From a virus (Duplodnaviria > Heunggongvirae > Uroviricota > Caudoviricetes): a DNA stretch of 8,587 bases. Of the stretch, positions 1 through 3,000 are shown piece by piece (positions within the stretch are counted from its first letter, which is position 1; every line of letters starts with the position of its first letter). The position numbers are program-made. Location: positions 1-8,587 of IMG/VR virus record IMGVR_UViG_2548876935_000013; one strand, written 5' to 3'.

Positions 1-3000
1 ATGGCACTGAATATTCCATTCAGAAATGCGTACTATCGTTTTGCATCCAGTTACTCATTTCTCTTTTTTATTTCCTGGTCGCTGTGGTGGTCGTTATACG
101 CTATTTGGCTGAAAGGACATCTAGGGTTGACAGGGACGGAATTAGGTACACTTTATTCGGTCAACCAGTTTACCAGCATTCTATTTATGATGTTCTACGG
201 CATCGTTCAGGATAAACTCGGTCTGAAGAAACCGCTCATCTGGTGTATGAGTTTCATCCTGGTCTTGACCGGACCGTTTATGATTTACGTTTATGAACCG
301 TTACTGCAAAGCAATTTTTCTGTAGGTCTAATTCTGGGGGCGCTCTTTTTTGGCCTGGGGTATCTGGCGGGATGCGGTTTGCTTGACAGCTTCACCGAAA
401 AAATGGCGCGAAATTTTCATTTCGAATATGGAACAGCGCGCGCCTGGGGATCTTTTGGCTATGCTATTGGCGCGTTCTTTGCCGGCATATTTTTTAGTAT
501 CAGTCCCCATATCAACTTCTGGTTGGTCTCGCTATTTGGCGCTGTATTTATGATGATCAACATGTGTTTTAAAGATAAGGATCACCAGTGCGTAGCGGCG
601 GATGCGGGAGGGGTAAAAAAAGAGGATTTTATCGCAGTTTTCAAGGATCGAAACTTCTGGGTTTTCGTCATATTTATTGTGGGGACGTGGTCTTTCTATA
701 ACATTTTTGATCAACAACTTTTTCCTGTCTTTTATGCAGGTTTATTCGAATCACACGATGTAGGAACGCGCCTGTATGGTTATCTCAACTCATTCCAGGT
801 GGTACTCGAAGCGCTATGCATGGCGATTATTCCTTTCTTTGTGAATCGGGTAGGGCCAAAAAATGCATTACTTATCGGTGTTGTGATTATGGCGTTGCGT
901 ATCCTTTCCTGCGCGCTGTTCGTTAACCCTTGGATTATTTCATTAGTGAAGCTGTTACATGCCATTGAGGTTCCACTTTGTGTCATATCCGTCTTCAAAT
1001 ACAGCGTGGCAAACTTTGATAAGCGCCTGTCGTCGACGATCTTTCTGATTGGTTTTCAAATTGCCAGTTCGCTTGGGATTGTGCTGCTTTCAACGCCGAC
1101 TGGGATACTCTTTGACCACGCAGGCTACCAGACAGTTTTCTTCGCAATTTCGGGTATTGTCTGCCTGATGTTGCTATTTGGCATTTTCTTCCTGAGTAAA
1201 AAACGCGAGCAAATAGTTATGGAAACGCCTGTACCTTCAGCAATATAGACGTAAACTTTTCCGGTTGTTGTCGATATCTCCCTATCCCTCAACCGGAAAA
1301 TAATAATACTAAAGTGCTTAGCCCTGCTAATAATCACCTAATCCAAACGCCTCATTCATGTTCTGGTACAGTCGCTCAAATGTACTTCAGATGCGCGGTT
1401 CGCTGATTTCCAGGACATTGTCGTCATTCAGCGACCTGTCCCGTGTATCACGGTCCTGCGAATTCATCAAGGAATGCATTGCGGAGTGAAGTATCGAGTC
1501 ACGCCATATTTCGCTATCAGGATTCTGTGTGATGGTTACATCGCCCGGCCCAGGGCTGTTTAGTCATCAGCGCTTTCTGACAGTGCTGAGATTTCAACCT
1601 GTTGCAGTAAAAATGAGTAGATATAAGGCAAGTGTGCTGCCAAACCCATCTTTTACGGGGTGAAGGTAGATTTCGTTTGAAGGGTATCTGGTGTCCCCTG
1701 CAGACATCTACTTGAGGCAGCAGGGGATTGATTGGAATGGTGTTTTTTAGATGTGAGAAATATTTTACCCGCTATTTTACCCATTGGCGCGGCTTAAGAG
1801 TTTATTTTTGAACTCACAATGGTCACGATATAACCATCTTGCTCGCCCGTGGATAACTTTGGCTTTTGGCAGGTCGCCGGACTTAATCCGGTCATAGATG
1901 AAGGTTTTACCAAAGCCAGTATCAGCCATGATGAATTTCAAATCAACCAGTGAATCAGGTTGTAGTTCGTGTTGCATGAGTGCTATCTCCGAATATGGAA
2001 TCGAACCTGCAAATCAGGTAATAAAAAAACCGCCATCAGGCGGCTTGGTGTTCTTTCAGTTCTTCAATTCGAATATTGGTTACTTCTGCATGTGCTATCT
2101 GCGCCCATATCATCCAGTGGTCATAGCAGTCATTGATATTCTCCGCTTCGATAACTCTGTTGAATGGTTCTCCATTCCATTCACCTGTGACTTTGAATTT
2201 CATTAAGTTTCACCTGTAAAAAAAGGAGCCGAAGCTCCTTTGATATTAAAATTCGAATTGTCTCGCCCGAAGGCTTTTTAACATTGGTCTTGCCCGTTCG
2301 AAAATGGCGCTTGTCTGGTCAATTCGTGTTGCCTCCCTGAGCAATGCGTCTCTGTTTTTCGTCACCGTGTAGAAAGTCTCAAACGCGATGTCATACAGCT
2401 TGCTCGCGTATGATGAGTTCAGTTCCTTCAATATCGGATACAGGCGTTTGCTGATGTCCTGTGCTTTCTCCATCTGTACCTGCATGTAGCAGAGGAGGAT
2501 GATTTCCTCGTCTGTGAATTGCTGTGCTGGTTGCATGCTGCGAAGTTTCTTTTCGCACTCGATGAAGTATCGGCGTATCTGGCGGCCTTTTTCGTTGTGC
2601 TCCACCATCGCCAGTTCTTTGGCTGTGTCGAGGGTGAGGTGGTAATCCTTGCGGTTGTGACCGCCTCTACCAGATGTTTGCTTTCCCAAATTGGAAAGCA
2701 AAATATAGTCTTGATTTTCAATGAATTCGTATTCTGAAATGCGATTTGTAATCCATGCCGCAAACACCTTTTTCACGCCTAAAAAAGCATGCAGATCGCG
2801 GGCATTGCAGAGTAGGGCTGTTTCGTTGGCGATAGTGCCGTTGAATACGGGGATGAGTTGACTGGTCATTTTTATGTCCTTTGCATTTGTTCAGATAGCC
2901 CTGTGTTCAGCAGGGCGGTCAGGTACTTGAACACCGTGCAAAGTCGGCCCGTATCCTTAACCTTTCGGTTGTTTTTCGGTATACGCGCTACCCGACCATA

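Follow-up and report, generated by a model that had tools for sequence, protein, structure and literature searches.

A truncated copy of the argW T-arm upstream of torI in the KplE1/HK620/Sf6 recombination module: tRNA-derived att DNA as a probable regulatory site

The IntS–TorI module by which KplE1, HK620 and Sf6 recombine at the tRNA gene argW has been described as a set of four parts, attL, attR, intS and torI, in which torI and intS lie at opposite ends of the prophage and TorI and IntS repress the intS promoter (PintS) through binding to the att sites (Panis et al. 2010, PMC2951348; Panis et al. 2012, PMC3509656). The published core of this module is the 16-nt sequence CTGCAGGGGACACCAT. 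The TorI sites on attL are 8-mers around GTTCG, GATCG or GTCCG, pentamers that were mutated to CAAGC, and the repression of PintS operates via two sites next to its −35 element; the excision switch relies on the expression of the gene for the recombination directionality factor (RDF), and full insight into excision control will need work on that expression (Panis 2010, PMC2951348). Here, we analysed an 8587-nt stretch of Caudoviricetes DNA (IMG/VR record IMGVR_UViG_2548876935_000013), hereafter the window, the positions of which carry the prefix w. A lambdoid prophage occupies argW here, and the window represents its attR end, with the same torI, 16-nt core, P-arm repeats and native argW flank as the published module. 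The locus is a normal member of the KplE1/HK620/Sf6 argW family, and its tRNA-identical core is a textbook feature. What appears to be new is a displaced, truncated and strongly conserved copy of the argW T-arm beyond the RDF gene and outside the working attR, in which tRNA-derived att DNA has probably become a regulatory site. This copy is an addition of the present analysis to the four published parts: it is not mentioned in the KplE1-module work (PMC2951348, PMC3509656), and may be noted in the HK620 and Sf6 genome papers or in the study of Rho control of torI.

The elements on which the argument turns were located as follows.
w1997–2012, minus strand: 16-mer TTGCAGGTTCGATTCC, identical to argW tRNA positions 47–62
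w2009–1997, minus strand: family-conserved part of the 16-mer (tRNA positions 50–62), from the conservation profile
w2002–2006, minus strand: GTTCG within the block, as in the attL sites of TorI whose pentamers were mutated (Panis 2010)
w1987–1994, minus strand: ATTCG joined directly to the torI ribosome-binding site GGAG, a second, degenerate TorI-like pentamer
w1777–1977, minus strand: torI, encoding the RDF (excisionase) of 66 aa, with its ATG at w1977 and stop codon at w1779–1777
w1689–1703, minus strand: att core CTGCAGGGGACACCA (tRNA positions 62–76), followed by the native flank base G where the phage has T

As the reference, we used argW of an E. coli strain with an unoccupied site (L003:1441–1515), the 3′ end of which reads ...ctaaTTGCAGGTTCGATTCCTGCAGGGGACACCAgataccc; the gene terminates ...CTAATTGCAGGTTCGATTCCTGCAGGGGACACCA and is followed by GATACCC. 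On the minus strand of the window, TTGCAGGTTCGATTCC at w2012–1997 and CTGCAGGGGACACCA at w1703–1689 enclose the entire torI, and in the alignment with L003 argW they correspond to tRNA positions 47–62 and 62–76, respectively, and are neighbours in the tRNA. A first-pass annotation of this DNA had described the two segments as consecutive parts of argW, about 290 bp apart with the complete torI between them, the proximal one being phage DNA that copies the tRNA T-arm exactly. The alignment bears out the adjacency, the torI ORF at 1777..1977 bears out the arrangement, and the perfect 16/16 match bears out the exact copy; the contiguity needs one correction, as a single C is common to both segments, and 30 rather than 31 bases of the tRNA are covered. 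The 16-mer spans the end of the variable loop, the 5′ strand of the T-stem, the T-loop and the first two bases of the 3′ strand of the T-stem. An exact 16-mer is expected by chance about 4e-6 times in 2 × 8587 bases (simple arithmetic), while shuffled windows gave 0.10 matches per window when up to three mismatches were allowed; a chance origin of the match is negligible. Beyond either end of the 16-mer, no significant similarity to the tRNA was detected, and a possible relic of positions 63–73 in the Shine–Dalgarno region (GGAGA against GGACA; TG...GCAGGAG in Serratia) is too weak to claim. The region was also considered as a tRNA gene or pseudo-tRNA and rejected: ARAGORN found no tRNA gene (no cloverleaf) in the window, and an Rfam scan of the region gave no tRNA match even at E≤10 and no family at its gathering score.

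The distal 15-mer had been taken as the att core, in agreement with both the published core and the native argW flank. Below w1689, the sequence is identical to the native DNA downstream of argW in L003, indicating a genuine attR junction, and the locus thus has the two marks of an attR of the KplE1-type argW module, namely, an adjacent torI-type RDF gene and a core followed by native argW-downstream DNA. The torI ORF is the annotated TorI WP_001163428.1 of the matching genome, and showed 98–100% identity to TorI clusters.

The first-pass annotation had proposed a check of whether the T-arm-like 16-mer is conserved upstream of torI in KplE1 and related argW prophages, and this proved to be so. 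The 16-mer was found upstream of torI in K-12 KplE1, upstream of identical RDF genes in the free phages HK620 and Sf6, and in at least 110 viral contigs. In these viral contigs, at least three unrelated upstream contexts meet the module at the T-run of a terminator, 12–20 bp before the 16-mer, which places the block together with torI at a mosaic boundary. The 16-mer belongs to the recombination module in general and is not local to this lysogen. The window leader itself carries a minority variant at two positions: A instead of C at w1996, right after the 16-mer (6 of 80 RDF-selected loci, and also seven motif-selected viral-contig matches), and TTAC instead of TTGC at w2019, in a cII-like box (17 of the 80).

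Polymorphism within the near-identical E. coli-type modules is too low to inform on constraint. The comparison of relatives covered TorI homologues at 60–86% protein identity from other Enterobacterales. In the window, the conserved block lies about 7 nt upstream of the torI ribosome-binding site GGAG, and approximately half of the RDF lineages have a T-arm-like block at this same distance: Enterobacter, Citrobacter, Serratia fonticola, two Pantoea, Edwardsiella, Hafnia, a Cedecea-type lineage and one metagenome bin. A first scan of viral sequences, with the TorI alignment, gave only 100%-identical E. coli-type loci; in a second scan, seeded with a Hafnia-type sequence, all 38 of 38 non-E. coli loci carried the block or a close variant. 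Such variants read as follows.
L252: GGTTAGACTCC
L269: GGTTAGATT
L253 and L254: CAGTTCGATTTCC
L256: two tandem GTTCGATT copies, 13 bp apart

The conservation set comprised 22 distinct sequences from about 11 lineages, with RDF coding-sequence identities of 64–85% for the relatives, and gave the following profile by tRNA position.
53, 54, 55, 57, 58, 60 and 62, in the block: invariant in the 22 sequences
50–52, 56 and 59, in the block: conserved in at least 82% (18–21 of 22)
61, in the block: C or T
49, in the block: G in E. coli only, A or C elsewhere
63, beside the block: C in 18 of 22, where the tRNA has T

The block ended at position 62 in all lineages, while strict identity of the core started at position 63. 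The match was perfect over 16 bases in the E. coli lineage only; the relatives mismatch the tRNA of their own hosts at position 49, around which the recovered host tRNAs all read TTGCAGG. Diverged lineages, with coding-sequence identity down to 64%, retained 11–13 of the 13 block bases at a fixed distance from GGAG, although the leader flanks outside the block, GGAG excepted, were unrelated or unalignable. The mean minor-allele fraction was 0.073 for the 13 columns of the block, compared with 0.313 for third codon positions of the RDF gene and 0.109 for first and second positions, and no draw in 100000 of 13 random third positions was as conserved as the block (0/100000), a statistic that covers motif-recognisable lineages only and thus carries an ascertainment bias. 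The block was more conserved than the non-synonymous sites of the RDF gene. Its retention across lineages whose synonymous sites have diverged heavily would be hard to reconcile with neutrality.

In conjunction with these comparative results, we tentatively propose, with slightly less than even confidence, that the 16-mer is a co-opted fragment of the tRNA that serves as a site for IntS and/or TorI controlling torI. An old T-arm fragment of the target tRNA would have become fixed in the 5′ control region of the RDF gene in KplE1, HK620, Sf6 and their relatives in other Enterobacterales. Its conserved core, CAGGTTCGATTCC (positions 50–62), would represent the exact left half of attB, the DNA that IntS recognises beside the presumed TGCAGGG exchange region. 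IntS and/or TorI bound to the block may hold torI expression down, and the excision switch would in this way be coupled to the recombination proteins. Among the three ideas put forward in the first-pass annotation (a split ancestral attP, a scar of serial integration, and a protein-binding or regulatory element), the last appears to fit the comparative data best.

For IntS, the candidate binding site was compared with the DNA around the core.
w1704–1726, minus strand: P-arm DNA at the core, CCCCTGC (inverted repeat of core GCAGGGG) and then GTAGATGT
w1762–1782, minus strand: two direct GGGTAAAAT repeats, the first overlapping the torI stop codon, family-invariant

The GGGTAAAAT repeats are probably the IntS arm-type sites of the P arm, because their TAAA motif matches the published P′ sites, which have TAAA in common, and because the repeats are invariant across the family. 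At w1774–1782, the first repeat overlaps the torI stop (GGG TAA) in a stretch that is likewise invariant, suggesting a joint constraint on the P arm and on the last part of the RDF reading frame. Where the E. coli P arm has GTAGATGT, relatives have the T-loop-like sequence TTCGATGT, which we take as the putative left core-type site C. From the left edge of identity, the strand-exchange (overlap) region would be TGCAGGG (positions 63–69). At the core, attP of the relatives reads TTCGAT-GTN-TGCAGGG and attB in argW reads TTCGAT-TCC-TGCAGGG, so TTCGAT is equidistant from the presumed overlap region in both, as would be expected of core-type sites under one protein. Block positions 50–62 are identical to the argW sequence immediately left of TGCAGGG, as in an integrase core-type half-site. 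This identity with the left half of attB, together with TTCGAT at the same offset in attP, makes IntS a candidate binder of the block. Two inverted repeats were observed near the core: CCCCTGC(A)...N14–17...(T)GCAGGGG, conserved across the DNA left of the core (w1704–1726 and relatives), and an imperfect one formed by GATGT and ACACC around TGCAGGG; these flanking repeats are candidate core-type sites. In Hafnia L144 (positions 2001–3634 of a 4.87-Mb contig) and in L153, the RDF gene is followed by attP-like DNA and then by the integrase gene. This is the order of the circular phage form, yet the L144 stretch lies within a chromosome-sized contig; it could stem from a lysogen with prophages in tandem, from integration at another site or from assembly of the excised form.

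For TorI, the block contains the pentamer GTTCG (w2006–2002) in the context GGTTCG, as in site I4. The second pentamer, ATTCG, lies 12 bp past the first, and several relatives have GTTCG or GTCCG in its place; many lineages show a second G/A-T-T/C-C-G directly at GGAG, tandem copies are present in L256, and L253 reads CAGTTCGA...CAGTCCGG, similar to sites I1 and I2, all of which support TorI as a ligand. The 16-mer resembles the I-sites also in adjoining an expression signal: I4 and I5 adjoin the −35 element of PintS, and the 16-mer adjoins the torI translation start region. It differs from them in the purine after the pentamer, in its phasing (12–13 instead of 10 bp) and in having one strong copy in place of an array. 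The TorI pentamer doubles as a near-universal tRNA T-loop motif. In attL (L001:1871–1990, with the argW T-loop positioned from L003), the GTTCG of the T-loop lies 31, 51, 94, 104 and 114 bp from the pentamers of sites I1–I5, distances close to whole helical turns, which is a numerical observation only; on the bacterial side of attL, the T-loop might thus provide TorI with a sixth site.

Several points weigh against the assignment of the block to IntS or TorI. Isolated core-type sites usually bind weakly, and the positions of the overlap region and core-type sites that underlie the IntS version were placed from the left edge of identity. As to TorI, the block reads AGGTTCGA, which departs from the I-site 8-mer (C/T)(A/G)G-T-T-C-G-(C/T): the base after GTTCG is A in all 22 of 22 blocks, while it is a pyrimidine in the five HK620 TorI 8-mers and in most of the Cedecea 8-mers deduced by homology. 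The spacing between the block and the second pentamer (12–13 bp) departs from the 10 bp of sites I3–I5 and from an array phased at about 10/20 bp. Only five TorI sites have been published, all on the P′ arm, though the attL fragments contained an identical T-loop; moreover, a 135-bp attR fragment recombines efficiently in vitro with its left primer in the last torI codons, which puts the 16-mer outside the working attR. Within E. coli-type modules, the 16-mer shows only singleton variants, some of which break GTTCG, and the flanks are equally quiet. The block is absent from Klebsiella, Rahnella, Cronobacter, Mixta, Tatumella, Arsenophonus, Proteus, P. latae and Dryocola; these lineages have either an RDF gene fused with the upstream operon or an unrelated leader. 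In Dryocola, the block has been cleanly deleted from between a conserved ATTGCCTG and the ribosome-binding site, and the remainder of the module is intact. Finally, the ascertainment bias of the conservation statistic counts on this side as well. In the Dryocola sp. sequence (L133, around 2960–3000), TTTTTTATTGCCTG is joined straight to GAGGAAAGC-ATG while the RDF gene, P arm and core are intact, a natural knockout of the T-loop block.

A more specific and rather improbable form of the proposal is that the block acts as a decoy for the bacterial half of the phage's own attachment site, placed at the start of torI. From the P-arm sites, which lie at the opposite end of the gene, bound IntS would bridge to this copy and form a loop of about 250 bp that encloses and silences torI, so that excision would be gated by integrase occupancy and not by pL transcription alone.

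Of the other explanations, the one that survives best, though we consider it unlikely, is that an ancestral attP was split, as the first-pass annotation had suggested: a continuous tRNA-identical block (positions 47–77) would have been divided between 62 and 63 by the RDF gene and the P arm, possibly through an Int-mediated insertion at the core, and the 16-mer would be the surviving left piece, with a later function or none. The two pieces do abut exactly in the tRNA, the family-wide limits of block and core fall at 62 and 63, and this 62/63 junction is the left edge of the region for Int-mediated exchange. However, most relatives have TTCGATGTNTGCAGGG at the core, with a second T-loop-like TTCGAT, so that the two pieces overlap in tRNA coordinates (positions 54–59) instead of partitioning the tRNA, and the arm sites required for recombination fall within the supposed insert. 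At least 120 contiguous matches to T-arm plus core were recovered from viral contigs, and all of those with readable upstream sequence (111/111) lay inside a complete tRNA gene, that is, in attL or attB; no attP or attR with long T-arm plus core identity was present among the matches listed (111 readable). A split would also account for the origin of the block only, and not for its strong conservation. A related idea, linked to the decoy reading and as improbable, is that Int-mediated recombination at precisely the 62/63 edge of the core brought the RDF gene and P arm into the module as one cassette.

Somewhat less probable still is a neutral relic, in which the block is left from a past recombination with the tRNA gene, has no present function, and looks conserved through common ancestry and lineage selection. 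Such a relic would be consistent with the dispensability of the block in about half of the lineages, including its clean loss in Dryocola, with its location outside the functional attR and with the singleton mutations in E. coli-type modules. It is difficult to square with the retention of 11–13 of 13 bases beside coding sequences down to 64% identity and unalignable flanks, with the presence of the block or a close variant at 38/38 non-E. coli viral loci, and with the fixed distance to the ribosome-binding site.

The block also overlaps an annotated promoter region. The HK620 record has a putative integration promoter and a cII site here, the Sf6 record likewise has a promoter and cII site, and the HK620 cII box overlaps the first four bases of the 16-mer. 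Its counterpart in the window is as follows.
w2009–2021, minus strand: TTACCTGATTTGC, counterpart of the HK620 TTGC-N5-TTGC box, with TTAC as the first repeat

On this basis, the block could be part of a cII-activated integration promoter (pI), with TTGC repeats flanking the −35 element, the T-loop in the spacer and CTATTC as the −10 element. We regard this as improbable, even with the two GenBank annotations in its favour and a distance from the second TTGC to the −10-like hexamer that resembles the one in lambda pRE. A cII-dependent promoter calls for TTGC-N6-TTGC with a usable −10, whereas the repeats here are spaced by N5, and the window reads TTAC-N5-TTGC. Neither the TTGC repeats nor the −10-like hexamer are conserved in Edwardsiella, Hafnia, Serratia and Pantoea, where the T-loop block is kept; there is no reason for a spacer to be the most conserved part; and the predicted start would eliminate the Shine–Dalgarno sequence. 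A scan for consensus sigma-70 promoters over w1600–2300 found no site.

Equally doubtful is an effect of the torI leader at the RNA level, through a T-arm-like hairpin or through a pairing of the T-loop UUCC with GGAG that would lower translation of read-through transcripts. A complete T-arm-like hairpin is present in Serratia and the Edwardsiella group, the stem is preserved in L252 despite two loop changes, and a weak UUCC:GGAG pairing is possible in 9 of 11 sequences. The consensus fold of the 11 leaders had an energy of only −1.95 kcal/mol and showed no compensatory pairs, E. coli-type sequences have no 3′ strand for the hairpin, and no Rfam family scored at its gathering threshold; a conserved T-arm-like RNA structure was rejected for the low fold energy and lack of covariation. 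Control of torI by Rho has reportedly been described (Menouni et al., PNAS 2013). With RNA structure, RNA family and sigma-70 promoter rejected or weak, a sequence-specific DNA site is what remains, in line with the co-option proposed above.

The remaining suggestion of the first-pass annotation, that serial integration at argW left the block as a scar, can be dismissed for this lysogen: HK620 and Sf6 carry the block in their genomes as free phages, its match ends at tRNA position 62 and not at the 3′ end, and it lies on the side of torI facing away from the chromosome junction. Paths through tandem integration or aberrant excision were also considered and dropped, since their simple versions place the T-arm beside intS and not torI.

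The 16-mer can be set against two other kinds of tRNA-derived DNA. Identity blocks to tRNA 3′ ends in the attP of tRNA-integrating phages and islands, reportedly treated by Reiter (1989) and Williams (2002), are likewise phage DNA duplicating part of the target tRNA, but are said to be continuous, to include the crossover and to reach the tRNA 3′ end so that the gene is restored. The 16-mer, in contrast, lacks the crossover region, goes no further than position 62 and sits 290 bp away, across a gene. Scars of tandem serial integration likewise present more than one copy of a tRNA 3′ part, in the same orientation and near an island end, but they run to the tRNA 3′ end and mark chromosomal element boundaries, whereas the 16-mer is truncated at 62 and carried by free phages.

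Integrase is made all the time in KplE1, HK620, Sf6, Kapi1 and many prophages of E. coli, Shigella and other Enterobacterales, so that the decision to excise rests on expression of the excisionase gene. A conserved element resembling a recombination site on the torI translation start region is thus a concrete, mutable target for the control of torI. It also indicates that tRNA-derived phage DNA can be kept for reasons other than restoration of the tRNA after integration.

The gene layout of the window was taken from the annotation of the closest complete genome (NZ_CP182387.1, 1523000–1565000; L237), apart from the hairpin position.
w1–1248, plus strand: cscB
next after cscB: attR junction, then torI on the minus strand
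upstream of torI, minus strand: 55-aa ORF with a hairpin of the intrinsic-terminator type at its end
w2027–2046, minus strand: this intrinsic-terminator-like hairpin and T-run, closing the 55-aa ORF; the conserved torI module begins at the T-run
beyond the 55-aa ORF, minus strand: antirepressor gene
further on, minus strand: early-left operon of a lambdoid prophage (anti-RecBCD, kil, cIII, ral), inside which the window runs out

All phage genes of the window are on the minus strand and transcribed in the direction of torI. A sub-threshold similarity to isrK, a small RNA of Salmonella prophages, was detected on the minus strand at w2023–2083 (18.3 bits against a gathering score of 50, E=0.19), overlying the 3′ end of the 55-aa ORF and its terminator. 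In NZ_CP182387.1, the prophage with torI-attR(argW)-csc has its opposite end at ybhB-bioA, the lambda attachment region, where tail-fibre remnants are present without intS and without argW. The prophage may be a hybrid, or the chromosome may have been inverted between one prophage at argW and another at att-lambda.

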